The position numbers and the translations under genes are program-made. Shown piece by piece: positions 1,828-35,401 of a stretch of DNA of 64,000 bases; position 1 is the stretch's first letter, and each line of letters opens with the position of its first letter. Under the pieces are notes generated by a model. The model searched no databases. It was given only the letters and a program-made list of their open reading frames with translations, and was not told the DNA's origin. Source of the stretch: Minisyncoccota bacterium. Lineage in GTDB: Bacteria > Patescibacteriota > Minisyncoccia > Phycocordibacterales > PALSA-1337. The DNA lies in NCBI GenBank assembly GCA_041666915.1, contig JBAYFZ010000003.1, forward strand, positions 22,394-86,393. The letters run 5' to 3'.

Positions 1828-1847
1828 ATTTATGGAATTATGAAGGT

Positions 1848-3053: not shown

Positions 3054-4159
3054 AAATTTTAATAGCAACCGGAATATACCCACCTGATATTGGAGGGCCT
3101 GCTACATATTCACAATTGCTTCGAGAAAAATTACCGGAGAAGGGAATTCAAGTTAAAATTTTGACCTTTGGAGAAGTTCGTTATTTACCAAAAGTTATCA
3201 GACATCTAGTCTTTTTTTGTAAAGCAATGATTAGGGGTCGTGATGTAGATATAATCTTTGCACAAGATCCAGTTTCGGTCGGCTTTCCATCATGGTTGAC
3301 AACTTTCATCATGCGTAAAAAATTCTTTATACGTGTAGCTGGTGATTATGCTTGGGAACAAGCTGTACAAAGATATGGTATCAAAGATAATATTGATGAT
3401 TTTCAAAAAAAGAAATATGGTGCAAAGACAAGTTTTTTGCGAATGATCCAGAGGTTTGTCGTTGGTAGAGCGGATACAGTATTTACACCTAGTATCTATT
3501 TTAGGGATTTGGTAGCTGGATGGAATAAAAAGCAAAAAAGAGTTTTCCATATTTATAATGGAATTGATATGTTGCCGGTGACTCAAAGTAAAGAAGATGC
3601 ACGAAAAGTGCTTGCGATTCCTAGTGATACAAAAGTTTTAGTAACTATTGGAAGACTTGTACCATGGAAAGGCTTTTTCGGTCTGATAGATGTTGTCGGG
3701 GATTTGCAAAAGGTTTCTTCACAATATCGTCTGTATATTGTTGGTACTGGTCCAGATAAGGAATCTTTGAAGAAATATATCTCTGAAAGAGGTCTTGATG
3801 AAGTGGTTTTTCTCACTGGAGCAGTCCCTCGTGAGAAAGTCTTTTCATATTTGGTAGCTTCAGATGTGTTTGTGCTAAATACGTCATTTGAGAGTTTCTC
3901 ATTCCAAATAGTTGAGGCAATGCACGCTGGTACGCCAGTTATCTCTACGGATATAGGAAATATTTCTGAAATTGTTGAAAATGGTGAGGAGGGAATACTT
4001 GTTGCACCTGATGATAAAAAAGCTTTGAGTGATTCAATCTTGAAAATTGTTAATGATGAACAATTTAGATCGTCTATTATCATGCAGGCTAAAATTAAGT
4101 CAAAGATGTTTTCTATTGAAAATACCTTGAATAAGTTATACACTTTTCTCGTTGAATAA
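3050..4159 (+). CDS. Glycosyltransferase family 4
   Basis: FESFSFQIVEAMHAGTPVISTDIGNISEIVENGEEG is a GT4 signature. The start overlaps the upstream stop by 4 bp, which suggests an operon. Confidence 0.8.
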   Translation: MKILIATGIYPPDIGGPATYSQLLREKLPEKGIQVKILTFGEVRYLPKVIRHLVFFCKAMIRGRDVDIIFAQDPVSVGFPSWLTTFIMRKKFFIRVAGDYAWEQAVQRYGIKDNIDDFQKKKYGAKTSFLRMIQRFVVGRADTVFTPSIYFRDLVAGWNKKQKRVFHIYNGIDMLPVTQSKEDARKVLAIPSDTKVLVTIGRLVPWKGFFGLIDVVGDLQKVSSQYRLYIVGTGPDKESLKKYISERGLDEVVFLTGAVPREKVFSYLVASDVFVLNTSFESFSFQIVEAMHAGTPVISTDIGNISEIVENGEEGILVAPDDKKALSDSILKIVNDEQFRSSIIMQAKIKSKMFSIENTLNKLYTFLVE

Positions 4160-5249
4160 TACCGTGAATCAAAAACGATTATTAATGATTTCGACCGACA
4201 GATTAATCTTTGATGAGAAGAGCGAAGTTCGTGCGCGCCAGATTGAATACGCTAAGAATTGGGACGAAGTACACATTGTCGTCTTTAATCGATACCCCCG
4301 GGGGGTATCAGATGCGAATTTGAAAATCTCCCCTAACTGCTGGATCTATTCAACAGAATCATATTCAAAGTTTTTGTACCCATTTGACGCCATCAAGCTT
4401 GGTCGTCAGATTATTACTGAACATAAAATCAGTGAAATAACTTGCCAAGATTCTTCTCTGACAGCAATGGTCGGCGTATCTCTTAAAAAGAAGTTTAATA
4501 TTCCACTGGAGATTCAGATTCATACGGATATCGGTAGTCCATATTTTGCTCGTACTATTACCAATAAGATCCGACTTATGATGGCAAAAAAATATTTGCT
4601 GGAAGCGGATAAAATAAGGGTCGTTTCAGAGAGAATTAAAAAATATGTTGAGGTGATTCTTTCCAATAAAGATTGTTGCGGTGATTGTAGGTGCGAAACA
4701 GGTAATAGTTGTAAATGTTGCGGTGATAATTGCGCCTGCGATAAGACTTTAATAGAAGTCCGTCCGATAGTTGTAGATACGGAATTTATTAAAAATGCAC
4801 CGATTACTGTTGATTTGCATAAAAAATATCCACAATTTACAAAGATAGTCCTGATGGCTTCACGATTGGAAAAAGAAAAAAATATTGAATTGGCTATTAG
4901 GTCTTGGTCAGAAATTATTAAAATCAATCCAACAGTTGGTTTGATCATAGTCGGTAGTGGCTCCGAAGGATCTAAACTCAAAACATTAATCTCAAAGTTG
5001 GGATTAAATAAGAATATTTTTATGGAAAAATGGGTAGATAAAAATATTCTAGCTTCATATTACAAAACAGCTGATCTGTTTTTGGTCACTTCATTATTTG
5101 AAGGTTACGGTATGACTCTAGTTGAAGCCAATGCTGTCGGGTGTAAGATTGTCTCTACTGACGTAGGAATAGCAAAAGAAATGAATGCGACGATCGTAGG
5201 ATATAATACTAAGGAAGTTGCAGATGTGATTGTTTCCAAGATTAGGTAG
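4152..5249 (+). CDS. Glycosyltransferase family 4 carrying a metallothionein-like Cys-rich insertion
   Basis: EGYGMTLVEANAVGCKIVSTDVG is a GT4 motif. The insert NKDCCGDCRCETGNSCKCCGDNCACDK (12 Cys in about 27 aa) lies between the two Rossmann halves. Confidence 0.7.
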   Translation: MNNTVNQKRLLMISTDRLIFDEKSEVRARQIEYAKNWDEVHIVVFNRYPRGVSDANLKISPNCWIYSTESYSKFLYPFDAIKLGRQIITEHKISEITCQDSSLTAMVGVSLKKKFNIPLEIQIHTDIGSPYFARTITNKIRLMMAKKYLLEADKIRVVSERIKKYVEVILSNKDCCGDCRCETGNSCKCCGDNCACDKTLIEVRPIVVDTEFIKNAPITVDLHKKYPQFTKIVLMASRLEKEKNIELAIRSWSEIIKINPTVGLIIVGSGSEGSKLKTLISKLGLNKNIFMEKWVDKNILASYYKTADLFLVTSLFEGYGMTLVEANAVGCKIVSTDVGIAKEMNATIVGYNTKEVADVIVSKIR

Positions 5250-6932: not shown

Positions 6933-7379
6933 ATGGTTGATTGGACAATAAAAAAATATATAGAATTGAATGATAAATATCCAACGCATACGAAGTTGGT
7001 CCGCTTTTTGATTTCTGGTGGTACAGCTACTTTTGTAAATATTGCTTTGTTGTATGTTTTTACTGACGTATTTGATATATGGTATATAACATCTGCAATA
7101 ATGGCTTTCGTTATTGCTTTTGTTGTTAGTTTTACTCTTCAGAAGTTTTGGACATTCCAAGATATGTCAAAAGAGGGTATGCACCGTCAGGCTATTATAT
7201 ATTTTACGATGGCATCTTTTAACCTTTGTCTGAATGCTGGTTTATTGTATTTATGTGTTGAATATATTGGCCTTCATTATTTATCTGCTCAGATTTTGAT
7301 AAGCATTTTGATTGCAATTGAAAATTATTTCGTTTATCAGTTTTTGATTTTTAGAAGGACTATTTTGATAAAACCATGA
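6933..7379 (+). CDS. GtrA-family membrane protein (polyprenol-phosphate-sugar flippase-like)
   Basis: 148 aa with 4 predicted TM segments. The N-terminal segment LVRFLISGGTATFVNIALLYVFT is typical of GtrA (PF04138). Confidence 0.7.
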   Translation: MVDWTIKKYIELNDKYPTHTKLVRFLISGGTATFVNIALLYVFTDVFDIWYITSAIMAFVIAFVVSFTLQKFWTFQDMSKEGMHRQAIIYFTMASFNLCLNAGLLYLCVEYIGLHYLSAQILISILIAIENYFVYQFLIFRRTILIKP

Positions 7380-9082
7380 TTATTCCAGAATCAAGATTAT
7401 TTTCTTATTCAAAAGAATTGAGAGTTATTCTTATATTATTACTAACCTTTTTTGTGATAAGGATATCGGGTGTCTCCATATCTTATTATCAAGATGAATG
7501 GAAAAATGTATCCTCGGCTTCAAGTGTTGAATCGGCTGGAGCTTTCTTTGCTCATCCGCCTTTGATGCAAATGTGGTTTGTCGCTGGGTATGCGATATTT
7601 GGTGAAAATAATTTTAGACTATTTCCAATACTATTCTCTGCGATGACGCTTGTCCTTCTGTATATTGTTGTGAGGAAAAGATTTGATAATACAACAGCTT
7701 TATTGTCAGCATCTCTTTTTACGGTAGTTTTTTATAGCATCTGGGGTTCTCTAATGGTTGATGTTGATGGCCCAGTGATGCCTTTGCTGTTTTTGCTTGC
7801 AGTATATTGTTACGATGAGTCCAATCTTTCAGCGGATAATTCTAAGCGTAAATGGTTTATATTACTTCTTTTGTCATGTCTTGCTGGATTTTTGATAAAA
7901 CTTAGTTTCATTTTAGTTGTTGGAGTTTTCTTATTGGACTATGTCTGGACTAATTGGCGCAGTTTAACTTTGAAGAAATGGGTGGTCTTGGCTGGATCTC
8001 TGGGTGGTTTCGGTATAATTTATGTCGTTGCTCTTTATGTCATCCAAGCTATTTATCCTGCATTTAGTATTGATTTTATGCTTGGTCATGCCAATCAATT
8101 TGTTCCTGATATTGGAAGGGATTATACACAAATAGTTGTTCAAGGAGTAAAAGCGATTTATTATCTTTCTCCACTTTTGATTGTGCCATTACTATTTTTA
8201 TCAAAAGAGATTTTTAGAAAAACGCGCATATTTTTCATATATCTTTTGGTCGGTTTTCTATTCTATTTCGTCATCTTTGATTTCTCTAGGGGGGTGTTGG
8301 ATAAATATTTGATATTTGCGACGATACCTCTCGCTGTTATATCCGGAGCTATTTTTGCCAGTCTTTTCAAGAATTTTAAACCTTCTTTGAAGAGTCTGAA
8401 AATACCAATAATTATTTCGGTTGTTGTCGCAGTCATTCTCATTGCTATCAATTTCTTACCTCACGCTGTAATGCCTTTGTATCCAAAGACAGAGTGGTTC
8501 TCTAGAGTTTTGCATGGTCAATGGAATTTCCTTAACCCGTTCAATGGTGGTTCTGGTCCAATTGGCTTCTACGTTTCTTTCTTATTTATCGCAGTCTCGT
8601 TTATCTTTTCAGCAGTAGTGGGTTTGGTTGGTCTTATAAAGAAAGATTGGAGACAATCTTGTGCAATTATTCTTATTGCTATTGGTTTGGTTTATAACAT
8701 TGTTCTTGCAGAGGAACTGATGTTCGGAAAGATTAATGGAAATTCTACAAAATTACTCGCCACAGCGGTTTCTTTTATAACCAAAACTGATTCAATAAAG
8801 AAGGTAATGTCATACAACAGTATTGGTATTCGTGAGTTGTCTCCAACTGGGAAATGGTATATGAGGTTTTATGCCGCTCCACAATTTGAGAGTAATCATC
8901 GTAAAGTATTCGCTGACTTCAAAGGGCAATATTTGGTAGTAGATATTCCACATATAAGTGAGAGTATTTTCTATGGAAAGTTCTTGGCTAAATGTGATGT
9001 TATTTTTGAATCTAGATCAGGAAAGATAACCGCTAGAGTTTATGATTGTCTGGACAGTAAGAAGATTATTGATAGTATATAA
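7376..9082 (+). CDS. GT-C fold membrane glycosyltransferase (GT39/ArnT/PMT-like)
   Basis: 568 aa, polytopic with more than 10 TM segments. A DE motif sits in the first extracytoplasmic loop (SYYQDEW). The gene sits between GtrA and a GtrB-like GT2. Confidence 0.5.
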   Translation: MIIPESRLFSYSKELRVILILLLTFFVIRISGVSISYYQDEWKNVSSASSVESAGAFFAHPPLMQMWFVAGYAIFGENNFRLFPILFSAMTLVLLYIVVRKRFDNTTALLSASLFTVVFYSIWGSLMVDVDGPVMPLLFLLAVYCYDESNLSADNSKRKWFILLLLSCLAGFLIKLSFILVVGVFLLDYVWTNWRSLTLKKWVVLAGSLGGFGIIYVVALYVIQAIYPAFSIDFMLGHANQFVPDIGRDYTQIVVQGVKAIYYLSPLLIVPLLFLSKEIFRKTRIFFIYLLVGFLFYFVIFDFSRGVLDKYLIFATIPLAVISGAIFASLFKNFKPSLKSLKIPIIISVVVAVILIAINFLPHAVMPLYPKTEWFSRVLHGQWNFLNPFNGGSGPIGFYVSFLFIAVSFIFSAVVGLVGLIKKDWRQSCAIILIAIGLVYNIVLAEELMFGKINGNSTKLLATAVSFITKTDSIKKVMSYNSIGIRELSPTGKWYMRFYAAPQFESNHRKVFADFKGQYLVVDIPHISESIFYGKFLAKCDVIFESRSGKITARVYDCLDSKKIIDSI

Positions 9083-9087
9083 TCACT

Positions 9088-10341
9088 ATGAAGAAAGACT
9101 TTTGGAAAAGATACTATTACGATTATTTAGATTCCTTCGTTTCTTTTCTTGTACCTGTAAATGCAAAAGTTCTTCATCTAAATCAGAATGAATTTGATAC
9201 GGCAAATCTTTTCTCAAATTCTTCTAAGTATGATTATGTGGTCACTTCTGACACTCTGGGTAATATTCGTGATATAGAGTTGTTCCTAAGGGGAACCAAG
9301 AAAATGCTTACAGATGACGGAAGAGTTGTTATAACTCAATATAATGCCCTTTGGGAGCCTATTTTGAGGCTTGCTTCTGCTTTGGGGTTGAGAAAAGCCG
9401 TTATAGAACAGAACTGGCTTTCAATGTTAGATCTAAAAAACTTTGCTTATTTGGCTGGTTTTGAAGTTATAAAATCTGGTACAAAATTGATTTTACCTGT
9501 TTATATTCCGATCCTATCATTCGTTTGTAATAAATTTTTGATGAATATTTGGCCATTTTCTCATCTTGGTCTTTTTCATTATATTGTTGCAAGAAAGTCC
9601 GGATTAAAGACAGGTGATAAACCATCTATATCTATTGTTGTCCCTGCTAGGAATGAAGCTGGAACAATAGAAAAAATAGCTAGAGAATTGCCAGAATTAG
9701 GTTCGTTCACAGAAATAATTTTTATTGAGGGTAATTCAACCGATAACACTTATTCTGAAATACAAAGAGTTGTAAAGATTTTTGGTAAGACAAAGAAAAT
9801 CAAGTTTGCAAAACAAAGTGGAAAAGGAAAAGGTGATGCTGTCAGAAAAGGTTTTGATATGGCAACTGGTGATATTCTCGCTATATATGATGCTGATATG
9901 ACAGTTCCAGCTGATGAAGTCGTCAAATTCTATGAAGCTATCGTCAGTAATAAAGGGGATTTTATTAATGGGTCTCGTTTGGTCTATCCTATGCAAAAGG
10001 AATCAATGCGAGTTTTGAATTTCTTTGGAAATAAGTTTTTCAGTTTGGCTTTTAGTTGGATTTTGGGACAACCACTCAAAGATACACTTTGTGGTACAAA
10101 AGTCTTGTGGCGTAGTGATTATGAAAAAATCAAACAAGGCAGAACTTTCTTCGGTGATTTTGATCCTTTTGGTGATTTTGATCTCCTGTTTGGTGCAGCA
10201 AAATTAAATTTGAAAATTATTGATATGCCAGTTCATTATGGAGAACGTGTCTATGGCACGACCAACATAAGTCGTTGGAAACATGGATGGTTACTCTTGA
10301 AGATGACAGTTTTCGCTTCAAAAAAGATGAAATTTTTGTAG
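9088..10341 (+). CDS. GT2 glycosyltransferase (polyprenol-phosphate sugar synthase / GtrB-like) with an N-terminal methyltransferase-like domain
   Basis: C-terminal half: SIVVPARNEAGTIEKI ... IYDADMTVPADEV (the GT-A DXD motif). Confidence 0.65.
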   Translation: MKKDFWKRYYYDYLDSFVSFLVPVNAKVLHLNQNEFDTANLFSNSSKYDYVVTSDTLGNIRDIELFLRGTKKMLTDDGRVVITQYNALWEPILRLASALGLRKAVIEQNWLSMLDLKNFAYLAGFEVIKSGTKLILPVYIPILSFVCNKFLMNIWPFSHLGLFHYIVARKSGLKTGDKPSISIVVPARNEAGTIEKIARELPELGSFTEIIFIEGNSTDNTYSEIQRVVKIFGKTKKIKFAKQSGKGKGDAVRKGFDMATGDILAIYDADMTVPADEVVKFYEAIVSNKGDFINGSRLVYPMQKESMRVLNFFGNKFFSLAFSWILGQPLKDTLCGTKVLWRSDYEKIKQGRTFFGDFDPFGDFDLLFGAAKLNLKIIDMPVHYGERVYGTTNISRWKHGWLLLKMTVFASKKMKFL

Positions 10342-10349
10342 TACCCGTG

Positions 10350-11258
10350 TTATTTTTTGACAGCAAAAATATTTTTGAATGATTCACCTTTGGGGAAAGT
10401 CTGAATAAATTCTTCTATATTTGTTATTGGTTGAATATCTTTTTTATTTTCATCTATTAGAGAAAGCGAAAAGCCAAGTCCCGCTAGGTTTTCAAGATAT
10501 CTTTGAGCATTGCCACCTAGTCTGGCCATGGCTTTTGGATAGACTTCAGTGAAGATTATCAAGTTAGGGCTTTTTTGTATTGTTTCTCGCATACCTTCTA
10601 GTGCCAAGAATTCAGCTCCTTCTATGTCTATTTTTATAATATCTATCTTTGGCGAACCAAATTGTTTGAGAGAATTATCTAAAGTATCCAATTCTATTGT
10701 TAATCCTGGTTTATCTTTGTCATAGACTAGAGAATGATGACCTTTATTATTTGGATCTAGATACAATGTATTTGAACCTTTTTTGTCGGACAAACCAATT
10801 TTTTGTGCTTTTACATTTGTAAGTCTATTGACCTCAATATTTTTTTGAAGAAAAGAGTAGTTTCTATTTTCTGGTTCGTAGGCGAATATTTTGCCGTTTG
10901 ATCCAATGTGTCCGCTAGCTATTATGGTGTAGTATCCGATATTTGCACCGATATCAACTACGGTAAAACCATTTTTCAGTGATTTTCGGAATAGCTCTAT
11001 CTCGGTATCTTCAAAACTTCCTAGAGCAAGTGTTCCTGACACTGCCACATCAGTTTGATCCAGTATGATAGTACCTTCTTGGATATTTATCTGTGGGGGG
11101 ATCTTGGATAAGATGATCTTATTTAGAATTGTTTTTAGAATTGGTACAAGTGATGCTGTACGGTAGATTTTTGCTGGTATAGAGGGTGGTAATAGACCAA
11201 TGATCTTTGTTAAAACCGAAGCGTGTCTATCGGATTTGAGAGCTTGTTGTTTCGGCAT
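10350..11258 (-). CDS. FkbM-family methyltransferase
   Basis: VVDIGANIGYYTIIAS, ending ...FAVKK. This is the Methyltransf_21 pattern. Confidence 0.75.
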   Translation of the reverse strand: MPKQQALKSDRHASVLTKIIGLLPPSIPAKIYRTASLVPILKTILNKIILSKIPPQINIQEGTIILDQTDVAVSGTLALGSFEDTEIELFRKSLKNGFTVVDIGANIGYYTIIASGHIGSNGKIFAYEPENRNYSFLQKNIEVNRLTNVKAQKIGLSDKKGSNTLYLDPNNKGHHSLVYDKDKPGLTIELDTLDNSLKQFGSPKIDIIKIDIEGAEFLALEGMRETIQKSPNLIIFTEVYPKAMARLGGNAQRYLENLAGLGFSLSLIDENKKDIQPITNIEEFIQTFPKGESFKNIFAVKK

Positions 11259-11260
11259 AA

Positions 11261-13480
11261 ATGATTATAATTACACGGTTAAAGATTTATATGAAAGCCT
11301 ATAGAGATATTATCATCATACCGACCTATAACGAGAAAGACAACATAGGCAAAATAATTGAAAAAGTTAGTGGGCTTTATCCTGAGCTGGAAATATGGGT
11401 AGTTGACGATAGTTCACCTGATGGAACAGCAAAGATTGTCTCTACAATCATGAAATCCAATCCAAAGGTGAGTTTGATTGTCCGTAAAGCAAAGACTGGT
11501 CTAGGCGATGCTTATAAAGATACTTTGATCAAAATCCAAAAAATGGGTGATGTTAGGAGTGTAATAACGATGGATGCTGATGGTTCTCATAATCCTTTGA
11601 AGATAAGAGAACTTCTAGATTCGCTTCAAAAAGTTGATTTGAGTATTGGTTCTAGATATACGAGCGGCGGTGGTGGAATGAAGGGTATGGGCATGTATAG
11701 GAATTTTTTGAGTATGGGTGGCAATCTATATGCTAGGATTATTATTGGTTTTGGTATCAATGATTCTACTGCTGGTTTTGTAGCCTTCAGGAGAACTGCT
11801 TTGGACGGTATCAATATTCCTGCTATTGCTAGTGCTGGTTATTCTTATCAAATAGAATTCAAGAATACTTTACTTGAAGCTGGAAGAAGTTGGAATGAAA
11901 TTCCTATTACTTTTGTTGATCGTATAGTAGGTACATCAAAAATGTCTGGAAGGATTATCAAAGAGGGAATTTTGACCCCTTGGAGAATAGCGGCTCGTAA
12001 AACATTCAAATGGTCACATTTCAAAGAGGTTTTGAAAAAAGCTTTACTGATTTCTACTGTGCTCTGTGCTTTTATGTTTGCTCTTTTCCATTTAAAAGAG
12101 AGTCCACCTGTCTGGTATGACGAAGGCTTGTATATTCAGGATGCTGTAAACCTTGTCCAAGATGGAATCGTAGGAGTTAGGTTTTCTCCAGATATTATCC
12201 GTCATGTTTCGGAGTTTAGTGTTGGTTTTCCATTGACTTATTCTTTGGCCGGATTTTTCAATATTTTTGGAATAGATATTTTCACAGCACGTTTGCTTAT
12301 GATTTTGTTTATTTTAGGTCTTATCATTTCTAGTTATTTTCTCATAAAGAAACTATATGGCAGAAATATAGCGATAATTTCTACAATTTTATTGTCTACA
12401 TTTCCACCTTTATATGGTAATGGTAAAAGTGTATTAGGTGAGACACCAGGATTGTTGTTTTTAGTCTTAGCTTTATTGTTTGTTTATTTAGCTAGAACAA
12501 AATTTGGATCAAGGAATAAATATATCGTGTTTGCTGGTTTATTTGTTGGTTTGGCTGTAGCTACAAAACCATTCTTTCTTATATTGATTCCAGCGCTTAT
12601 TGTTGGTTTGTTTTCCAGTAGAAAAATTATGCAGATTAAGATGTCTGATCTATATCTAGGTTCAATAGCTACGTTGATACCGATAATTATTTGGCTGACA
12701 ACCCAGTTCCAATCAGGAGATTCATTCTTGAAGATTTTTTCTTTCTACGCCAACCCCTATCAAGTTTCTAGTATTATTAGCATAGTCTTTAATAGTATTA
12801 AAAGTCTATTTACCAGTGTAGGCCCGCTATATCTTATGGTGGTATTGTTTGTCTGGTTGGTATCTTTGATAATTAAGTTTAAGAGACGTTCAGAAATTTC
12901 TCCAGAGGAAATAACAGCCTTCACTTTTTCTGTTCTCTGTGTTTTGGCTTATTTGAGAATATCAGGAATCTTTAGATACCTTTATCCAGCTCAAGTGATT
13001 TCTTTGATTTTCTTTCCATCAGCTTTAGCTTACATACTAAATACATTTTCAACTTCATGGTTTGATAATACGAAAAAGAAATTTGTAACGCTTGGTTTGG
13101 CTATTGTATTTATACCACTGACATTTCTCGGTATATATCAAGTTCTCTTCAATTCTTGGGTTGCTGAAGCTTATGGATCAAATAAGACTGCTGATTGGCA
13201 AAATTACTTTGAGAAGTTACCCTCAAAAGAATCCGTTTTCTTTTACGATACTCCTGAAGTTGCGATCTTTATGAATGGTAGTAATTATTATCAATATATA
13301 GAACCAGCGCCAAGTATGAAGATTGGTACTGAAGAATTGGATGTTATACGTCAAGGTATAACCGATAAAGTAGTTATTACTACAGGTAGATTGAGCGGAC
13401 TTGATCAGAGCCTGTTTGTAAAATATAGTTTAGACAAAACCTTTTACAAATATTCTATTTTGAAAAAGATTAAGAAATAG
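11261..13480 (+). CDS. Fusion: GT2 polyprenol-phosphate-sugar synthase (DPM1-like) + C-terminal polytopic GT-C-like membrane domain
   Basis: N-terminus: IIIPTYNEKDNIGKII, VVDDSSPDGT, DADGSHNP. After about residue 250 there are 10 or more TM helices, with a PMT/ArnT-like DE motif (PPVWYDEGLYIQDA) after the first TM. Confidence 0.65.
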   Translation: MIIITRLKIYMKAYRDIIIIPTYNEKDNIGKIIEKVSGLYPELEIWVVDDSSPDGTAKIVSTIMKSNPKVSLIVRKAKTGLGDAYKDTLIKIQKMGDVRSVITMDADGSHNPLKIRELLDSLQKVDLSIGSRYTSGGGGMKGMGMYRNFLSMGGNLYARIIIGFGINDSTAGFVAFRRTALDGINIPAIASAGYSYQIEFKNTLLEAGRSWNEIPITFVDRIVGTSKMSGRIIKEGILTPWRIAARKTFKWSHFKEVLKKALLISTVLCAFMFALFHLKESPPVWYDEGLYIQDAVNLVQDGIVGVRFSPDIIRHVSEFSVGFPLTYSLAGFFNIFGIDIFTARLLMILFILGLIISSYFLIKKLYGRNIAIISTILLSTFPPLYGNGKSVLGETPGLLFLVLALLFVYLARTKFGSRNKYIVFAGLFVGLAVATKPFFLILIPALIVGLFSSRKIMQIKMSDLYLGSIATLIPIIIWLTTQFQSGDSFLKIFSFYANPYQVSSIISIVFNSIKSLFTSVGPLYLMVVLFVWLVSLIIKFKRRSEISPEEITAFTFSVLCVLAYLRISGIFRYLYPAQVISLIFFPSALAYILNTFSTSWFDNTKKKFVTLGLAIVFIPLTFLGIYQVLFNSWVAEAYGSNKTADWQNYFEKLPSKESVFFYDTPEVAIFMNGSNYYQYIEPAPSMKIGTEELDVIRQGITDKVVITTGRLSGLDQSLFVKYSLDKTFYKYSILKKIKK

Positions 13481-14132
13481 GTTTCTTTAGTTCCAATATT
13501 ACGATACCAAGAAAAAATGGTCGTAGTAGATATACACGTGCAGATGGGGTAATCTTTTTGCCTATCTTTATCAATTCTTTTTTAGAAAAGAATGTTTGAT
13601 CAGTCCATGGCCATAGCGAGCGGAATATTTTTGGACGAGTAATAGTGTACCAAGGTGTGAGATATGACCATTTATACGGAACACTGATGAGGGTGGTTCC
13701 ACCTAGTTTTGTAGCTTTCCAATGTTGCTCTGCTACGAGTAGTGGATTATCAAAATGTTCCATGAGCCCTTGGCTCCAGACTATATCAAATGTCCCCTGA
13801 AAAGGGACATCAAGACAATTCCCGTCAATGAATTTGGCATTTGTAACTCCATATTTTTTTGCGCAATCTTGCGATATTTTCAAAGCTTCTGGAGAAATAT
13901 CTAAACCTACCAAACCCTTCATTTCTTTTGCTAAAGAGATCGTCAGTGTAGAAGTACCGCAACCAAGTTCTAGAAATTCCGTTTGCCCGTTGATATGCTT
14001 TCGCAACATTTTACGAAAGAAACCGTTGTAGACAAAACGTCCGTAATCTACAAAATAAGACAGTCTGTTTTTATGTAGCCAAATATTTTGCCAAATGTCT
14101 CTATGTTCTCTAGTGTTATTTCGGTGTTCCAT
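13470..14132 (-). CDS. Class I SAM-dependent methyltransferase
   Basis: FLELGCGTSTLTISLA is motif I. The protein is 220 aa. Confidence 0.7.
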   Translation of the reverse strand: MEHRNNTREHRDIWQNIWLHKNRLSYFVDYGRFVYNGFFRKMLRKHINGQTEFLELGCGTSTLTISLAKEMKGLVGLDISPEALKISQDCAKKYGVTNAKFIDGNCLDVPFQGTFDIVWSQGLMEHFDNPLLVAEQHWKATKLGGTTLISVPYKWSYLTPWYTITRPKIFRSLWPWTDQTFFSKKELIKIGKKITPSARVYLLRPFFLGIVILELKKPIS

Positions 14133-14171: not shown

Positions 14172-14855
14172 TCATTTGAATCGTTGAATAAATAATACCC
14201 AAATACCGATGATACCATCGCGGTATTTTATCTTTTTACCATTCTCAATAGTTCTTGGATTATGAGATATTGGTACTTCTGCTATTTTGAAATTATTTTT
14301 GACCAAGCTAGTCGAGAATATTAGTTCGGATTCAAATCTACCCGAAACAAAGAGGTGACCAGCTTTCTTCGGAAAGAGTTTATAACAAGTCCAAAGGTCG
14401 GTCAATTTTGAACCGTAAAGTATATTGAATTGTTTTGTTATGAACCAGACTCCAACTCGTGGAATATACATACCTTTTCTTTTTTCATGGTGGATGTTTC
14501 TTGATCCATATATAATGTCGGCTTTACCTTTGTTGAGTTCGTTTATAAGTAGAGGAATTTCTTTTGGGTTATATTCTAGATCAGCGTCTTGTATCAAGAT
14601 ATAATCTCCAGAACTGTTTTCTATACCTGTTTTGACGGCGCTACCTTTTCCTTGGTTTTTTGTGTGGTAAATAATTTTCAAGCGATCCTTGTAGTCATCT
14701 AGAATCTTTCTAGTATCATCTTGCGATCCATCGTCAACTACCACGATTTCTTTTTTCCAGTTTGACGGTAATGATACCTGTAAAACTCTTTGTAGAAGTT
14801 CATGAATAGTAGCTTGCTCGTTGAAGCAAGGTATTATGATGGAAAGAGTTTTCAT
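14172..14855 (-). CDS. Glycosyltransferase family 2
   Basis: LSIIIPCFNEQATI, VVDDGSQDDT, QDADLEY. Confidence 0.75.
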   Translation of the reverse strand: MKTLSIIIPCFNEQATIHELLQRVLQVSLPSNWKKEIVVVDDGSQDDTRKILDDYKDRLKIIYHTKNQGKGSAVKTGIENSSGDYILIQDADLEYNPKEIPLLINELNKGKADIIYGSRNIHHEKRKGMYIPRVGVWFITKQFNILYGSKLTDLWTCYKLFPKKAGHLFVSGRFESELIFSTSLVKNNFKIAEVPISHNPRTIENGKKIKYRDGIIGIWVLFIQRFK

Positions 14856-14869: not shown

Positions 14870-15955
14870 ATGGCGAATGACAAAAGTAAAATATTCTTTT
14901 GGGTTTTTGTAATTGTAATTTCTGTTGTATGTTTTGTTTCTTTATTCATTTTTAAGCCGGTTGTTGCTGGTGACGGTTTTTCATATGTAGATACGATCAA
15001 GGTTATCCAAGGTGGAAATATTCCAAGTGATTTTGTTCCAAATAGGATGATAGCCAATTTTTATGGTCTTGGACTTATAATCTTGCTATCAAAAATATTT
15101 GGAAATGTTGAACTGGGTTGGATTCTTCTAAACATAACACTATTTTTTGTTTCTAGTATTATTTTTTATAAAATAATACGGACCCTCTTTGAAAGTGATA
15201 AAACAGCTTTTATTGCTTCACTTTTCTTTGCTACCAATTACGCCGTCATTTCGTTTGGTTTAGCTTATTTGATGGATATTGGAGGTTGGGCTTTCTACTT
15301 ATTATCCCTCTATTTGACCCTAAAATACGTCCAGACTGGAGATAGAAAGATGTTGTTGTATTCTGCCGTTGTTATTGGTTTCGGAGGTTTATTCAAGGAA
15401 TATGCCTTTTTGGGAGTTATACCTATTGCTATTGTATTAGCTTATGAAAATTGGCCAAAATTTATTACGATTATAAAAAAAGGATTAGTTCCAGCCTTGA
15501 TAGTCTTTGTCCCTGCAATCCCAGTTTATTTGGTTGTTTATAAAAAATTTGGTTACACCTATGCTACGTGGCTCTCTTCTAACCAAGAGCATTACGTTTA
15601 TGCTCATAAGTATATTGAATACATAAAAAGTCTTGGTTCTTTGTATAATTTTCTCGCTTTCTTGTTTATAGGTGGAATATTCTATTTTATTTATAATCGA
15701 AAGGAATTGGTGGCAGATAATAGACTTAGAGTTTTTATTATCTCTGTTTCTTTGTCTATACTCCCAGTCTTTATTTGGCCAGCTATAACTCAGAGGATAT
15801 TATTTATTACCGTTCCAGCCGCTATTGTTATCGCTTCGTTTATGTTCAAAAAATGGGAAAAATATTGGTGGGTTTTCATATTGCCACTTATTTTGTATAT
15901 TGTAGTTAACTTCAATATGAATTACGTCCTTTCCAATTTTAATCTACCGTTTTAA
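14870..15955 (+). CDS. Polytopic membrane protein (possible GT-C-like glycosyltransferase or polymerase)
   Basis: 361 aa with about 10 hydrophobic helices and no soluble domain. It lies in the glycan locus. Confidence 0.35.
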   Translation: MANDKSKIFFWVFVIVISVVCFVSLFIFKPVVAGDGFSYVDTIKVIQGGNIPSDFVPNRMIANFYGLGLIILLSKIFGNVELGWILLNITLFFVSSIIFYKIIRTLFESDKTAFIASLFFATNYAVISFGLAYLMDIGGWAFYLLSLYLTLKYVQTGDRKMLLYSAVVIGFGGLFKEYAFLGVIPIAIVLAYENWPKFITIIKKGLVPALIVFVPAIPVYLVVYKKFGYTYATWLSSNQEHYVYAHKYIEYIKSLGSLYNFLAFLFIGGIFYFIYNRKELVADNRLRVFIISVSLSILPVFIWPAITQRILFITVPAAIVIASFMFKKWEKYWWVFILPLILYIVVNFNMNYVLSNFNLPF

Positions 15956-17087: not shown

Positions 17088-18113
17088 CTACATCTTTAGT
17101 ATACTTTTTATCAGTATCTTAATGTTGTCAATTGATTTTTTATTCGTAACTAACTTATAGAGTGGTGATGTTTTAAACGCTTTCCACGTCTTCAGTCCTT
17201 GAGTGGTATTAAAACCACAAATTGTTCGCCATCTTTTGTAGACGATTTTATTTAGAGAGTCACTATTATAGATATTAGATTTTATATTTTGTGAGATTAT
17301 TTTCGATAACCAAATATCCTCTTTTTCTATAAAAGATTTAATAGTCTGATATTCTTTTGGTAGTATGGAATTATGGAGACGAATTTCTTCTTCAGATGGT
17401 TTTAGGTCAATTTTATTTAATAATCGAAGTCTAATATTTGTGGCCACATCGGATGTTTCTTTTTTGAAAATTTGCGATGTACTTTTGTCGTGAATACGGT
17501 ATTTCAATAATACTTTATCAATATTAGCAACGTGGAAAAAATTAGTGCACCTGCTCCAAAGATCATAATCTTCACCGTGATTTAGGTTTTCATTATAGGA
17601 TAGACAAAATTTATCGAATAGACTTTTCTTTATCATTACTGAAGGATGAATAAGTGATGTGTTAAATAGAAGGCTAGCCCTAATATCTTCAGGATTTGTA
17701 TAAACTTTATTTACTGTTGATTTACCGTATCCGAACGATTTACACCATGAACCGCATAGACCAACTTCGGGGTGAGAATTCATAAATTCTACCTGTTTTT
17801 CTAGACGCTTAGGTAAACTTATGTCGTCAGCATCCATTCTAGCGATATATTCTCCTTTGGCCTCTTTAATACCTAAGTTGAGTGCTTTTGGTAGATTATC
17901 ATCAGCAGTACGAAATATAAGACGTATTCTATTGTCATTGAATGAATTTATTACATCTAGGCTTTCTTTGTTTGTAGTTGCAGAGATTAAAATTAGTAGT
18001 TCAAAGTTTTTGTATGTTTGATCTAAAATACTTTGTATAGCCTGTCCGACGTATTGTTCACCGTTATGAACAGGTAAAATAACACTTATCAACTGTGGTT
18101 GTTTTTTATTCAT
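17088..18113 (-). CDS. Glycosyltransferase family 2
   Basis: ISVILPVHNGEQYV ... RMDADDISLPKRLEKQVEFM. Confidence 0.75.
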   Translation of the reverse strand: MNKKQPQLISVILPVHNGEQYVGQAIQSILDQTYKNFELLILISATTNKESLDVINSFNDNRIRLIFRTADDNLPKALNLGIKEAKGEYIARMDADDISLPKRLEKQVEFMNSHPEVGLCGSWCKSFGYGKSTVNKVYTNPEDIRASLLFNTSLIHPSVMIKKSLFDKFCLSYNENLNHGEDYDLWSRCTNFFHVANIDKVLLKYRIHDKSTSQIFKKETSDVATNIRLRLLNKIDLKPSEEEIRLHNSILPKEYQTIKSFIEKEDIWLSKIISQNIKSNIYNSDSLNKIVYKRWRTICGFNTTQGLKTWKAFKTSPLYKLVTNKKSIDNIKILIKSILKM

Positions 18114-33139: not shown

Positions 33140-35401
33140 ATGATGTACGATACCCTTACTTTTACTAATATCAATTTACTCAAAAATATGCCCCTCAAGA
33201 AAATAGTTCATGGTATAACGGTCGCTTCTTTATTCCTTTTGCCGCTTTTTGCTCTATTTCCAATACCTCATACTCCGTTTGAAGTATCTAACCTTTTCTT
33301 TTTCCCATTCATTACCGGTAAAGCTTTCTATTTCAGATTGATGGTTGAGGTCGCTTTCGCAGGATGGCTTATCTTAACTTTTATTGATGCAAAATATAGA
33401 CCAAAATTAACACCACTTACTATTGGTGTAACTTTGTTTACCGTTATCGCTTTTCTTGCGGATATTCTCGGGGTCAATCCTCTTCGCAGTCTTTGGTCAA
33501 ACTTTGAACGTATGGAAGGTTGGATAACAATAGTTCATTTGTGGGCATTGTTCATGGTAACTACAAATGTCTTTGGTTCTGGAGAAGAAGGTAAGAGAAT
33601 GTGGCATCGTTGGTTGAATATGTCTCTTGCTGTTGCTTTGGTCACTGCCTTTTATGGATTGGCTCAATATTTTGGTTGGGCAGAGATTCACCAAGGTAGT
33701 ACACGTTTGGACGCTTCTCTTGGTAACTCAGCATATATGGCAGTTTATATGCTGATCCATGCTTTCATCGCTGCTTATATGTATTTTGTTGCTAAGGCAA
33801 AAAAGATTGTCAATGCTGATTTTTTGAAATGGTTTTATCCTATAATTTCTTTATTGTTTGCTTTCCTTGTATTCCAAACACAGACTCGCGGTACTATTCT
33901 AGGACTCATCGGAGGAATTCTCTTGGCTCTTGGTCTATATGCTTTGCTCGCCAAAAATGAATCAAGTAAATCTCGCGGTATTGCGGTAGGAGTTATAGCT
34001 GTCATCATCTTGATCGGTGTTATCTTCTGGACGAATCGCAATTCTTCTTTTGTTCAAAATAGTCAATTGCTCAATCGTATGGCTAGTATTTCTTGGTCAG
34101 AAGCCAAGGGTCAAGCTCGTAATTACATTTGGCCATTAGCTATAAAAGGTGCAATGGAAAGACCAATTCTCGGTTGGGGACAAGAAAACTTCAACTATAT
34201 ATTCAATGCCAATTACAATCCGGCAATGTACACCCAGGAACAATGGTTTGACCGTGCTCACAGTGTGTTCATAGATTGGTTGGTTGCAGGTGGTTTTGTA
34301 GGTGTTATTGCATATCTTGCATTGTATGTACTATTACTTATGGCAGTCTGGAAATCTTCCATGACCATTGCAGAAAAGAGTGTTCTTACAGGACTTACGG
34401 CTGGATATTTTATCCACAATATCTTCGTCTTTGATAACTTGGCTAGTTACGTTCTATTCTTTACTGTTTTAGGTTTTGCCAATTCACAAACTAGAAGTGA
34501 ACATCGTACATTATTTGGTAAAAATACAGTTAGCAAAGATGCTGTTGAATATGTAGTCGCTCCGATAGTTATAGTTTGTCTGGTTGGTGTATTGTATTTC
34601 TTCCAATATCGTTTGGTACAAGCCAATACACGTCTTATTACTGCTCTGGTTTCTTGTTCAGGAAGCGGTCAGCCAGATGCGACTTTGTATGAGAAAGCTT
34701 TGGATGTAAATGTTTACGGTGCCAACCAAGAGATTCGCGAGCAGATACTTAGTTGTGCTGGTAGAGTTATTCCTTCTCAACAACTTGCAGGTCCTATCCG
34801 ACAAGCTTTCTTTTCTACAGCAATGAATGAGATCCAAGCTCAGATAAAAGCTACTCCTAAAGATACTCGTATTTATACTTTAGGTGGTTCATTCTTGAAT
34901 AGTATAGGACAATTCAATGAAGCTTTACCTCTTCTTGAAAAAGCTCATGAATTATCACCAGCAAAGCAATCAATCTCCTTTGAGTTGGCAACTGATTATT
35001 TGAATCTTGAAAAAGCCGATAAAGCTGTCATCTTACTAAAGCAGGTTTATGAAACCACTCCAGATTTTTATCAAGCAAAATCTTCTTATGCTACAGCCTT
35101 GGTTCTTTCTGGAAAAGAGACAGAGGCTAGAAAGATATTTAGCGATGATTTGGGAATCTTCAACACCGCTCAGATGGCAAAGGCTTTTGTGATGCTCAAA
35201 CAATATTCCAAAGCTATTACAATATATAGAGGTTTGATAAAGGCTAATCCAAAAGATGTAGATCTCCGTGCTCAATTGGCCCAGATACAATATATGGCAG
35301 GTCAGATTTATGAAGCAGTTGCAACTTTGCGTGATATAGAAAAGAGTAATCCAGAATTGAAAGCTCAAATTGACGCTACTATAAAGCAGATACAAAAATA
35401 G
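33140..35401 (+). CDS. O-antigen ligase/polymerase-like membrane protein (Wzy_C-type) with C-terminal TPR repeats
   Basis: An N-terminal domain of about 470 aa has more than 10 TM helices and a large periplasmic loop. The C-terminal 250 aa are TPR-like (YEKALDVN..., AKSSYATALVLSGKETEARKIF...). Confidence 0.6.
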   Translation: MMYDTLTFTNINLLKNMPLKKIVHGITVASLFLLPLFALFPIPHTPFEVSNLFFFPFITGKAFYFRLMVEVAFAGWLILTFIDAKYRPKLTPLTIGVTLFTVIAFLADILGVNPLRSLWSNFERMEGWITIVHLWALFMVTTNVFGSGEEGKRMWHRWLNMSLAVALVTAFYGLAQYFGWAEIHQGSTRLDASLGNSAYMAVYMLIHAFIAAYMYFVAKAKKIVNADFLKWFYPIISLLFAFLVFQTQTRGTILGLIGGILLALGLYALLAKNESSKSRGIAVGVIAVIILIGVIFWTNRNSSFVQNSQLLNRMASISWSEAKGQARNYIWPLAIKGAMERPILGWGQENFNYIFNANYNPAMYTQEQWFDRAHSVFIDWLVAGGFVGVIAYLALYVLLLMAVWKSSMTIAEKSVLTGLTAGYFIHNIFVFDNLASYVLFFTVLGFANSQTRSEHRTLFGKNTVSKDAVEYVVAPIVIVCLVGVLYFFQYRLVQANTRLITALVSCSGSGQPDATLYEKALDVNVYGANQEIREQILSCAGRVIPSQQLAGPIRQAFFSTAMNEIQAQIKATPKDTRIYTLGGSFLNSIGQFNEALPLLEKAHELSPAKQSISFELATDYLNLEKADKAVILLKQVYETTPDFYQAKSSYATALVLSGKETEARKIFSDDLGIFNTAQMAKAFVMLKQYSKAITIYRGLIKANPKDVDLRAQLAQIQYMAGQIYEAVATLRDIEKSNPELKAQIDATIKQIQK

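Follow-up and report, generated by a model that had tools for sequence, protein, structure and literature searches.

The window (the whole stretch of DNA analysed, 64,000 nucleotides) comes from an uncultured ultra-small bacterium of the CPR/Paceibacterota and carries a gene whose product joins a GT2 and a GT-C glycosyltransferase in one chain. Features of this gene and its surroundings are as follows.

6933..7379, forward strand: GtrA-family small membrane protein, candidate lipid-linked-sugar flippase (PF04138, GtrA_DPMS_TM, E 1.2e-24)
7376..9082, forward: GT-C#1, 568 aa (PMT_2 E 1.3e-12; D40-E41)
9088..10341, forward: GT2 (AglJ-like) with a partial methyltransferase-like N-terminal domain (Glycos_transf_2 E 3.4e-20, residues 182-313)
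10350..11258, reverse: FkbM-family SAM methyltransferase, 302 aa, divergent from the fusion (Methyltransf_21 E 2.6e-17)
11261..13480, forward: fusion gene, DPMS/Ppm1-type GT2 plus GT-C glycosyltransferase, 739 aa from the first ATG
11291..11947, forward: cytoplasmic GT-A (GT2) catalytic domain of the fusion, residues 11-229
11573-11581, forward: DAD motif of the fusion GT2, D105-A106-D107
11948..12010, forward: helix 230-249 and junction to TM1, at the DPMS IFH2 position (AF2 secondary structure)
12011..13147, forward: GT-C membrane domain of the fusion, residues 251-629, 11 predicted TM helices
12119-12124, forward: DE motif D287-E288, first outward-facing loop of the GT-C domain
12401-12451, forward: motif 'FPPLYGNGKSVLGE(V/T)PG' of the second outward-facing loop (EL2)
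13148..13477, forward: C-terminal alpha/beta domain of the fusion, residues 630-739, predicted outward-facing
13470..14132, reverse: convergent SAM methyltransferase, 220 aa (Pfam Methyltransf_31/25/11)
14172..14855, reverse: small soluble GT2, 227 aa, AglJ/PpgS-like, divergent from GT-C#3 (Pfam GT2 E 1.3e-36)
14870..15955, forward: GT-C#3, 361 aa (PMT_2 E 6.8e-14, PMT E 7.5e-05)
30496-31776, reverse: Wzt-like ABC ATPase (Pfam ABC_tran, weak Wzt_C match)
31785-32633, reverse: Wzm-like ABC-2 permease (ABC2_membrane)
33140..35401, forward: Wzy_C (O-antigen-ligase / O-oligosaccharyltransferase-like) membrane protein (Wzy_C E 9.7e-19)

The four open reading frames of the initial annotation (GtrA, GT-C#1, the GT2 at 9088-10341 and the fusion) were all confirmed at their coordinates. 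The minus-strand FkbM gene and the GT2/GT-C pair at 14172-14855 and 14870-15955 had been passed over in that first description.

Both Pfam domains of the fusion, Glycos_transf_2 (E 7e-25, residues 18-182) and PMT_2 (E 6.8e-14, residues 327-478), lie in a single unbroken reading frame. The true start is likely ATG 11291, giving a protein of 729 aa, since the NCBI annotation (P0001), ortholog starts and the resulting 32-bp divergent spacer (24-58 bp in other fusion loci) agree. A search for similar fusions, as had been suggested, recovered 26 ortholog clusters at 90% identity with the same architecture, 42-70% identical, from NCBI, JGI, ENA and Logan assemblies. The recurrence of one architecture across these independent assemblies rules out a frameshift or assembly artefact. 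Every named source of the fusion belonged to the Patescibacteria. The earlier description of the fusion as uncommon was borne out: of the 150 top-ranked representatives at 50% identity, about 5 were fused and >130 were GT-Cs of the same subfamily standing alone. The fusion is a genuine, though rare, version of a familiar surface-glycosylation scheme.

The assignment of the protein as a DPM1-like GT2 followed by a true GT-C with a PMT/ArnT-type DE motif was upheld by Pfam, AF2 and conservation. Mapping of the PfDPMS functional residues listed in PMC5526996 showed that 14 of 17 were identical in the fusion (Y10, E12, D39, which reads guanine N1/N2, R63, G68, L69, D89, D91, H94, R117, R131, S135, R202 and K208, in PfDPMS numbering), with one conservative change. 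The guanine-reading Asp, the DAD motif, the lipid-phosphate Arg/Arg/Ser triad and the A-loop Arg/Lys are all retained, and the 14 positions are invariant or nearly so across the 26 fusion orthologs. Two PfDPMS residues are replaced, Q93 by S109 and K178 by S195; K178 touches mannose O4 and the phosphoester (PMC5526996), and given this change the sugar specificity of the fusion could differ from that of PfDPMS. Among the proteins closest in sequence to the GT2 half are Lnt-GT2 fusions of the Ppm1 type and entries annotated as polyprenol monophosphomannose synthase, and a PDB search gave no sequence-detectable match of the fusion GT2 to GtrB or ArnC. By sequence, the GT2 is placed in the DPMS (GDP-sugar) lineage and not in the GtrB/CsbB (UDP-sugar) lineage. 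Its junction with the GT-C half aligns with PfDPMS residue 230, where the GtrA-like TM domain of PfDPMS starts (PMC5526996), and the helix/junction segment is K/R-rich (6 K+R per 21 residues, loop charge count).

Fold and topology checks of the C-terminal half found GT-C features. The AF2 model of the fusion reached a pLDDT of 94.5 and a pTM of 0.88, and TM prediction gave 11 helices, with 13 K/R per 46 residues in inside loops and 8 per 113 in outside loops. The 'PPVWYDEGLY' motif lies at residues 282-291. Positions E280-S281-P282, W285-Y286-D287-E288-G289, K436, R566 and R572 were invariant in the 26 fusions, the EL2 loop motif (residues 381-397) was largely so, and many residues of the C-terminal domain were conserved among orthologs 42-70% identical. 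Most of these GT-C positions remained at least 90% conserved once standalone homologs joined the alignment. As modelled, the C-terminal half has the GT-C fold, its acidic motif faces outward, and it is presumably an active transferase. Of the Pfam models, PMT_2 (PF13231) matched the fusion and PMT (GT39; PF02366) did not; the C-terminal domain of the fusion gave a weak ArnT-like match.

Both halves also occur in other combinations. Free-standing versions were found for the GT-C (P0028 in L001) and for the GT2 (239 aa, in L089), and in L005 an unfused GT-C of the fusion subfamily has a GT2 of another lineage (35 bits) as its partner. Members of this GT-C subfamily are joined to GtrA in P0073, P0148, P0200, P0227, P0241 and P0213, and P0147 and P0203 each carry one joined to a different GT2; these fusions would lend Rosetta-stone support to the proposed pairing. 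Partners fused to DPM1-like GT2 domains include Lnt/CN-hydrolase, GtrA, DedA, PF11028, MraY-like, radical SAM, YkuD and PAP2 domains.

The initial annotation had grouped its four genes into one module, but comparative neighbourhoods resolved two independent conserved units: GtrA-GT-C#1-(MT-like)GT2, which recurs as a block, and the divergent FkbM methyltransferase with the fusion. In the former, GT-C#1 shares its first 4 nt with the end of GtrA, and the GtrA to GT-C#1 order recurs in the P0003 locus and L005. GT-C#1, with D40-E41 within 'YYQDEWK' right after TM1, has orthologs 60% (L001), 46% (L005) and 42% (L089) identical. It showed no BLAST-detectable similarity to the fusion C-terminal half or GT-C#3, and is assigned to a GT-C subfamily other than that of the fusion. 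The third protein of the block had been described as a GT2 with an N-terminal methyltransferase-like domain. The GT2 part stood, and its 35.7 bits against the fusion GT2 profile mark a different GT2 lineage; the methyltransferase match is partial (Methyltransf_23 profile positions 66-163, E 7.9e-07) and this domain is probably inactive.

The FkbM protein scored 99 bits against TIGR01444 (cut-off 37.7). An ortholog lies directly upstream and divergent, with a spacer of 24-58 bp, in 7 of the 8 fusion loci, and 2 unfused GT-Cs of the fusion subfamily also have one as a neighbour. These partners are 43-66% identical to one another and at most 30% identical to other FkbM paralogs in the window. Its likeliest role is cytoplasmic-side O-methylation of the sugar handled by the fusion. 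GtrA was absent from the examined flanks of 4 of the 8 fusion loci (L003, L004, L087 and L088), and those of L088 held no further glycosyltransferase gene.

Beyond the fusion, the small GT2 at 14172-14855, with NCBIfam AglJ- and PpgS-like matches under the curated cut-offs, and GT-C#3, with ~10 hydrophobic segments, form a candidate third synthase/transferase pair, so that three mutually unrelated GT-C proteins lie inside 9 kb. The Wzm/Wzt genes (NCBIfam TagH- and Wzt-like matches under cut-offs) are a predicted exporter of lipid-linked glycan at the far end of a ~30-kb glycan locus, which also contains the Wzy_C ligase-like protein with its C-terminal TPR repeats (Pfam TPR families), many glycosyltransferases and methyltransferases, and GDP-heptose-type genes.

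We consider it probable that the fusion makes a polyprenyl-phosphate sugar inside the cell and uses it outside through its own GT-C, the two active sites of a single polypeptide lying on opposite faces of the cytoplasmic membrane. The N-terminal GT-A domain, a putative DPM1/Ppm1/PfDPMS-type dolichyl/polyprenyl-phosphate mannose synthase, would transfer a GDP-activated manno-configured sugar to polyprenyl phosphate. The donor is most likely GDP-mannose; GDP-glycero-manno-heptose may be an alternative, as the locus has pathway-like genes. In the model and the topology, the chain then enters TM1 of the 11-TM GT-C where PfDPMS enters its GtrA-like TM domain, so the GT-C, in taking the place of that domain, also anchors the synthase. 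The polyprenyl-phosphate sugar could reach the outer leaflet via the locus GtrA, an unlinked flippase or the fusion itself; since GtrA is not a conserved neighbour, this step is not assigned to it. Finally, the invariant DE motif and conserved basic and aromatic outer-loop residues would move the sugar off its lipid and onto an acceptor outside the cytoplasm. That acceptor would be a secreted or surface protein, as with Pmt, or else the glycan that the same-locus Wzm/Wzt exports. The donor sugar and its linkage are inferred here, as are the lipid carrier and the acceptor; no indication of protein over glycan or lipid as acceptor class was found. Fusion guarantees 1:1 stoichiometry and co-localisation of synthase and transferase. 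Substrate channelling may also result, but as a mechanism it is incomplete: the lipid-linked sugar has yet to pass through the membrane to get from one active site to the other.

Functionally, the fusion is proposed to represent in one chain the actinobacterial pair of Ppm1 and Pmt (GT39 protein O-mannosyltransferase), which are two separate proteins without a dedicated FkbM methyltransferase partner. It differs further in matching PMT_2 (PF13231) and not PMT (PF02366), in its patescibacterial host and in that a protein acceptor is only a candidate here. M. tuberculosis Ppm1 (Rv2051c) is itself a natural fusion of an Lnt-like membrane domain D1 and a catalytic D2; depending on the species, the DPM-type catalytic domain and the polytopic membrane domain form one protein or come from two separate genes (PMC3485146). 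The halves of the window fusion show the same lability, but the Ppm1 partner is N-terminal and of Lnt/CN-hydrolase type, whereas here it is a C-terminal GT-C and candidate consumer of the product. In place of the four-helix GtrA-like TM module of the type-III DPMS of Pyrococcus furiosus (PfDPMS, PDB 5mlz), the fusion has an 11-TM GT-C with an outward-facing domain; by the definition in PMC12992685, type III occurs in archaea only. Gtr-type three-component systems combine a GtrB/CsbB/GacI-type GT2, a GtrA/GtcA flippase and a GT-C of the GtrC/YfhO/GacL kind (Mann & Whitfield 2016, as cited in PMC10821137; Kelly et al. 2024, PMC11127046). The fusion region follows the same logic with the same component families, a canonical unfused copy (GtrA-GT-C#1-GT2) adjoins the fusion, and the locus holds an ABC-transporter glycan pathway of the kind such systems decorate. 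In contrast, synthase and transferase are fused here, the GT2 is of DPMS and not GtrB/CsbB lineage, and GtrA does not consistently accompany the fusion. In the Gtr-type literature, GacJ-GacI was the only natural fusion found described (PMC10821137). ArnC and ArnT (undecaprenyl-P-Ara4N synthase and lipid A transferase) are separate proteins acting on a different sugar and acceptor, and neither matched the fusion at the sequence level.

DPM1-like GT2 domains join many unrelated domains, from Lnt/CN-hydrolase to PAP2, and the fused GT-C therefore need not be the consumer. The GT2 could instead be a general polyprenyl-P-mannose synthase that supplies the entire cell or every GT-C of the locus, with coupling limited to localisation, as DPM1-type catalytic domains need a membrane partner. 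This is consistent with M. tuberculosis Ppm1, where membrane D1 does not consume the product and D2 needs no other domain for catalysis (PMC3485146), and with PfDPMS, whose TM domain was truncated and tested as separable from catalysis (PMC5526996; PMC12992685). Three unrelated GT-Cs within 9 kb could likewise share one donor pool. However, two further small GT2 synthase-like proteins in the window each adjoin their own GT-C, favouring one synthase per transferase over a shared pool. Furthermore, the fusion and FkbM genes move as a self-contained cassette, even outside a glycan locus (L088, examined flanks), and most recorded partners of this GT2 lineage are polyprenyl-phosphate-linked glycan enzymes, which fits functional linkage. 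We regard the anchoring role alone as unlikely, if still the strongest competitor.

It is quite improbable that the C-terminal half no longer works as a transferase and serves instead as a scaffold or a re-purposed translocator of the lipid-linked sugar. Another component must move the product where no GtrA is nearby, and a 2026 PfDPMS study proposes that the TM domain of the synthase can hold flipped Dol-P-Man (PMC12992685). Yet the invariant DE motif, the largely invariant EL2 sequence and the conserved K436, R566, R572 and many C-terminal-domain residues also occur in the much larger set of standalone GT-Cs, as expected of a functioning outward-facing active site and not of a relic. GT2 domains fused to multiple TM helices are also typical of processive cellulose, hyaluronan and chitin synthases, in which the membrane domain would be an export channel for a glycan polymerised from nucleotide sugar. 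This model, already disfavoured, is very hard to sustain here, as the GT2 half is DPMS residue for residue, including the Arg/Arg/Ser triad and A-loop Arg/Lys, and the membrane half resembles a GT-C and not a synthase channel.

The convergent methyltransferase gene at 13470..14132 overlaps the 3′ end of the fusion with its own 3′ end by 11 nt. It is kept beside the closest ortholog only, with a 66%-identical copy downstream of P0002 in L003.

All ORFs named by the initial annotation were found in the window at the positions it had given them, and each assignment was backed by Pfam. The central gene joins a DPMS-type GT2 domain to a GT-C membrane domain in one chain (hereafter the fusion). It lies among the following features.

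6933-7379, forward strand: GtrA (Pfam GtrA_DPMS_TM, E 1.2e-24)
7376-9082, forward strand: GT-C#1, PMT_2-type (Pfam E 1.3e-12), with D40-E41 directly past the first TM helix
9088-10341: GT2 with a methyltransferase-like N-terminus (Pfam GT2 E 3.4e-20, residues 182-313)
10350-11258, reverse strand: FkbM-family methyltransferase of 302 aa, divergent from the fusion and passed over by the initial annotation
11261-13480, forward strand: the fusion, in a single frame (Pfam Glycos_transf_2 E 7e-25, residues 18-182; PMT_2 E 6.8e-14, residues 327-478)
13470-14132, reverse strand: methyltransferase gene convergent with the fusion
14172-14855: GT2 of a third GT2/GT-C pair just downstream of the fusion, divergent from its GT-C
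14870-15955, forward strand: GT-C#3, the GT-C of that pair

The motif PPVWYDEGLY occupies residues 282-291 of the fusion. An identical protein of 729 aa, P0001, is already public under the label 'glycosyltransferase' from a Candidatus Paceibacterota MAG, Paceibacterota being the phylum today called Minisyncoccota, within Patescibacteria/CPR. The annotated start of P0001 is ATG 11291. Since ortholog starts align to this position, and since the resulting divergent spacer of 32 bp to the FkbM gene fits the 24-58 bp found at other loci, ATG 11291 is the likelier start. An assembly or frameshift artefact was ruled out by 26 fusion clusters from independent assemblies that share the architecture, at 42-70% identity and with constant linker length. 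Production of a separate GT-C by internal restart was also ruled out, there being no Met at residues 240-260.

The GT2 half has a GT-A fold, with DPMS as the nearest fold. At the sequence level the type-III DPMS of Pyrococcus furiosus (PfDPMS) was the sole solved relative under E 1e-3 (7e-22), and neither GtrB nor ArnC matched the GT2 half in this search of solved structures. We mapped the functional residues described in the PfDPMS structure paper (PMC5526996) onto the fusion via sequence alignment: 14 of 17 are identical, and all 14 are invariant or nearly so across 26 orthologs. Y23 and E25 correspond to ribose and A-loop residues, and the A-loop pair R221/K227 is kept. So are the guanine contacts D50, G80, L81 and R75, (near-)invariant equivalents of the guanine-specific Asp39, Gly68, Leu69 and Arg63 of PfDPMS (PMC5526996). 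The DADxxH motif is present as D105-A106-D107-G-S109-H110, its D, D, S and H being invariant in 26/26 orthologs, and H110 represents the mannose O3 contact. Equally invariant (26/26) is the lipid-phosphate triad R132/R147/S151, which corresponds to the Arg117/Arg131/Ser135 triad of PfDPMS, 'conserved in bona fide DPMSs' (PMC5526996). As to the differences, F177 of PfDPMS is replaced conservatively by Tyr and Q93 by Ser (S109); the mannose-contacting Lys178 aligns to S195 (S/A/M in orthologs), an uncertain equivalence in a gapped local alignment. Since most functional residues of PfDPMS are kept, we class the N-terminal half as a predicted GDP-sugar-dependent polyprenyl-phosphate glycosyltransferase of the DPM1/Ppm1/DPMS type, for which mannose would be the sugar expected by default. 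The same residue match ruled out a processive synthase.

The initial annotation had read the membrane half as a GT-C domain and had named an Lnt-like or transporter-like domain as the result that would overturn this reading. Fold searches returned a GT-C fold and ruled out both. The predicted model comprises a Rossmann-like core (residues 15-220), a K/R-rich helix (230-249) where DPMS interface helix 2 would sit, 11 membrane helices (AF2; from 251-275 to 602-629) and, last, an alpha/beta domain of 110 residues. Since the GT2/GT-C junction falls at the point where PfDPMS runs on into its own GtrA-like TM domain, the GT-C half stands in for that domain. AF2 helices and a positive-inside count (13 K/R in 46 residues of cytoplasmic-side loops versus 8 in 113 on the opposite side) predict a polytopic protein with its N-terminus inside and its first loop outside. 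The DE motif (D287-E288) lies 12 residues past TM1 in this first outward-facing loop; it is invariant in the 26 fusions and at least 90% conserved among 77 sequences including standalone forms. With the GT2 half inside, all conserved elements map to outward-facing loops of the predicted topology: the DE motif, a 'FPPLYGNGKSVLGE(V/T)PG' loop (381-397), K436, N498-P499 and R566/R572. These are invariant or largely so in the fusions, and most still reach at least 90% conservation once about 50 standalone homologs are included. Together with the predicted topology, this pattern argues for an active GT-C site rather than a relic anchor. Judging from the fold and the fused synthase, the donor would be a polyprenyl-phosphate-linked sugar; a search with the C-terminal domain gave no clue to the acceptor.

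The protein is thus a member of both the DPMS-type GT2 family and the GT-C superfamily. Comparison with mycobacterial Ppm1 and with Gtr systems, proposed by the initial annotation, revealed a similar component logic, but the fusion is not a Ppm1 D1-D2 protein. By analogy, it would perform the same two-step function as actinobacterial Ppm1 and Pmt, with both components placed in one chain, and the same function as a Gtr-type three-component system, two components of which would be one chain here; GT2 and GT-C, genetically linked in Gtr-type systems, are linked here in the strongest form, by fusion. In M. tuberculosis-type Ppm1 the DPM1-like domain is joined to Lnt (PMC3485146). This Lnt/CN-hydrolase membrane domain is N-terminal in D1-D2 proteins, whereas the membrane half of the fusion is C-terminal and GT-C, not CN_hydrolase/Lnt. 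Type-III DPMSs carry a C-terminal GtrA-like four-helix TM domain, whereas the fusion carries an 11-TM GT-C without a PF04138 match. With GT39 PMTs it shares the DE motif in loop 1. In the window the fusion matched PF13231 (PMT_2) but neither PF02366 (PMT) nor PMT_4TMC, and PF02366 was matched by few orthologs only (P0011); with the PMT family model and the 4TMC domain both unmatched, it is not demonstrably a GT39 PMT from its sequence. In the open-access literature searched, GacJ-GacI and Ppm1 D1-D2 were the only fusions found, and none joining GT2 to GT-C was described; in the literature covered on three-component systems, GacJ-GacI was the only natural fusion mentioned.

The initial annotation had grouped GtrA, GT-C#1, the GT2 and the fusion into a four-gene module. 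Comparison of the neighbourhoods of eight fusion genes, the window's own included, did not bear this out: the constant neighbour of the fusion is the divergent FkbM gene, present at 7/8 loci. An FkbM partner also adjoins two standalone GT-Cs of the fusion's subfamily (loci L001 and L005). The partners share 43-66% identity with one another and at most 30% with the window's three other FkbM paralogs. The cassette occurs outside glycan loci at L003 and L088; at L088 the pair stands alone amid peptidase, SWIB, BacA and helicase genes. In the window GtrA lies 3.9 kb upstream of the fusion, but as part of the adjacent GtrA-GT-C#1-GT2 block, and no GtrA was found within 6-10 kb of the fusion at L003, L004, L087 or L088. 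This separate block recurs in full order at the locus of P0003, and partially as GtrA-GT-C#1 in L005 and as GT-C#1-GT2 in L001 and L086; the GT-C#1 orthologs of L001 and L005 show 46-60% identity.

The methyltransferase-like domain of the block's GT2 (window 9088-9600, ∼170 aa) aligns with methyltransferase profiles over their C-terminal two-thirds only, its Methyltransf_23 match being limited to profile positions 66-163. At the expected site of the glycine-rich SAM-binding motif I it reads 'VLHLNQNE'; upstream there is no space for the missing part, and the domain is probably an inactive relic. The architecture is kept in relatives of 394-434 aa; P0081, P0082 and P0085 have the opposite domain order, and alignment of the N-terminus with them was uninformative. 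Since the window's three GT-Cs are mutually without BLAST-detectable similarity and its three GT2s are distant, the three GT2/GT-C pairs would imply three different specificities. Downstream, the 3′ ends of the fusion and of the convergent methyltransferase gene overlap by 11 nt (window 13470-13480), and an ortholog of the latter (66% identity) also follows P0002, the closest ortholog of the fusion. At L087, in the genome encoding P0021, the cassette has as its immediate upstream neighbours a second GT2+PMT_2 fusion (1-1742, forward strand) and a 724-aa GT2-containing protein (1793-3967, forward strand), so that one genome can carry several such fusions. In two relatives, GT-C or fusion genes have B12-binding radical-SAM enzymes next to them (L001 494-2671 and 5603-7072; L003 7953-9452; all on the reverse strand). 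One of the L001 enzymes has a GT2 domain in the same chain (725 aa), and P0105 and P0112 are similar rSAM-GT2 fusions.

A search with a profile of the 26 fusions covered 1.84 billion 50%-identity representatives. The fusion proved as uncommon as the initial annotation had supposed: five full-length representatives of the orthogroup (P0015, P0007, P0025, P0022 and P0123) and a few fragments were recovered, versus more than 130 standalone GT-Cs of ∼480 aa and the same subfamily among the best 150 matches. Members of this subfamily also occur with an N-terminal GtrA (six proteins: P0148, P0200, P0227, P0241, P0213 and P0073) or joined to an unrelated GT2 (P0147, P0203). A second search, seeded with P0244 from a different lineage, yielded more DPM1-like GT2 + PMT_2 fusions, some TPR-tailed (P0266, P0277, P0306, P0313, P0323, P0325, P0341 and P0357). 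Wherever an organism is given, DPM1-like GT2 + PMT_2 fusions come from Patescibacteria/Parcubacteria, and one carries the automatic name 'polyprenol monophosphomannose synthase'. When GTDB species representatives were scanned with the fusion alignment, one of the matches listed was full-length-like (L006, Paceibacterota), its region being split over several ORFs; the listed matches are dominated by the widespread GT2 motif [VI]DD[NS]SPDGT and say nothing on taxonomic spread. The DPM1-like domain is promiscuous, its partners including Lnt, GtrA, DedA, radical SAM and YkuD.

Each half also exists alone. P0028, a standalone GT-C 57% identical to the C-terminal half, occupies a syntenic locus (L001) without a GT2 upstream, and L089 encodes a standalone DPMS-type GT2 of 239 aa with its own stop codon, located after a GT-C#1-type gene rather than one of the fusion's subfamily. 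The GT2 that comes after a same-subfamily GT-C at L005 belongs to another lineage (35 bits); an exact split counterpart, that is, an unfused GT2/GT-C gene pair, was sought at L005 and L089 and not found. In an NJ tree of 194 GT-C domains, fusions lie in one sector, interleaved with standalone forms; the tree has short deep branches and no support values, and is compatible with a single or several fusion origins. Since free-standing halves exist and fused and standalone forms interleave, the fused state looks evolutionarily labile, as for Ppm1.

The window is a glycan locus throughout 1848-35401. Its transferase genes belong to GT4 (five genes) and to GT2, GT10 and GT11 (several), and its export and ligation genes encode Wzm/Wzt and a ligase-like protein of Wzy_C + TPR type. 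SAM methyltransferase genes are so many (about nine, four FkbM-family and some five others) that heavy methylation of the glycan is probable. The stretch 18106-21271 encodes an HddA-like GHMP kinase, a GalE/heptose-epimerase-like SDR and a fusion of guanylyltransferase with GmhB-like phosphatase; all score under NCBIfam cut-offs, and together they look like a GDP-D-glycero-D-manno-heptose pathway. At L004 the FkbM/fusion pair has SIS, HAD and transaldolase genes as its immediate upstream neighbours.

Starting from the established identities of the two domains, the catalytic residues conserved on both sides and the genetic linkage to FkbM, we envisage that the GT2 half would make polyprenyl-P-mannose or, since the window's locus and L004 carry GDP-heptose-type genes, another GDP-activated manno-sugar. 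The FkbM partner, being SAM-dependent, would act in the cytoplasm, perhaps on this sugar. Candidates for flipping the lipid-linked sugar are GtrA, an unlinked protein and the fusion itself; the GT-C half would then move the sugar to a protein or to a Wzm/Wzt-exported glycan. A separately assembled glycan as acceptor would fit the Wzm/Wzt pathway that the locus contains; the cassette is also found away from such loci. The modelled topology is consistent with active sites on opposite membrane faces. Fusion guarantees stoichiometry and proximity of synthase and transferase. The substrate channelling suggested by the initial annotation gained no support in its strict sense, and it would have to accommodate a transbilayer step.

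Alternatively, FkbM and the fusion could constitute a self-sufficient two-gene surface-modification device, in which one polypeptide would make a polyprenyl-P-manno-sugar (maybe FkbM-methylated on the cytoplasmic face, or a heptose), flip it via its own GT-C domain without GtrA and transfer it to an outside acceptor. Translocation by the fusion is raised because the PfDPMS TM domain was suggested to bind flipped Dol-P-Man in a 2026 study (PMC12992685). Participation of the synthase-attached membrane domain in translocation appears unlikely here on the evidence at hand, and we consider the complete device improbable. It would add a fourth anchoring type to DPMS types I-III (PMC12992685). Such a device would, in addition, offer a natural model of Dol-P/Und-P-monosaccharide flipping.

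The logic of a cytoplasmic synthase and an outside GT-C underlies protein O-/C-mannosylation, GPI and N-glycan mannosylation and LAM synthesis, and the same two steps serve to modify lipid A with Ara4N and to decorate O-antigen and teichoic acids. To our knowledge, synthase and GT-C are separate enzymes in all characterised cases, passage of the donor across the membrane between them is poorly understood, and no catalyst of Dol-P-Man flipping has been identified. For CPR bacteria, which lack genetics, a well-conserved single chain is Rosetta-stone-type evidence, not proof, of a link between this DPMS lineage and the GT-C subfamily. The chain also draws attention to a methyltransferase partner that is tightly linked and had gone unrecognised, and its confident model makes it attractive for cryo-EM and biochemistry on the arrangement of synthase and consumer around their lipid carrier. 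The fusion sequences are already public under generic names; new beyond the initial annotation are the conserved FkbM partner, the re-partitioned module and the residue-level support for a GDP-sugar DPMS. The fusion adds to a sparse picture of surface building in ultra-small Patescibacteria and overturns no concept.

Several further features of the window deserve mention. The Wzy_C (O-antigen ligase/O-oligosaccharyltransferase-like) membrane protein (33140-35401, forward strand) has TPR repeats arrayed at its C-terminus and is divergent from Wzm/Wzt, a layout that resembles ABC-transporter-dependent S-layer/protein O-glycosylation loci of Gram-positive bacteria. At 22821-24464 (reverse strand) a GT2 is fused to DUF268, a methyltransferase-like family named from Caenorhabditis. 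The halves of a GT4 ORF (4152-5249) are split at residues 175-197 by a Cys-rich insert, CCGDCRCETGNSCKCCGDNCACD, with 9 Cys in 23 residues (window 4674-4742); it has a metal-binding or metallothionein-like look, which is uncommon in GT-B enzymes. Immediately upstream of the glycan locus, the left edge of the window encodes a TraG/VirD4-like type IV coupling protein (7-1827, forward strand). At the other end, a giant ORF of at least 4597 aa (50208-64000, forward strand), with an fn3 domain and six FG-GAP repeats, runs past the window end in a region where GC content rises from ∼0.35 to 0.43. It probably encodes a huge surface protein, which could conceivably be a target of glycosylation.
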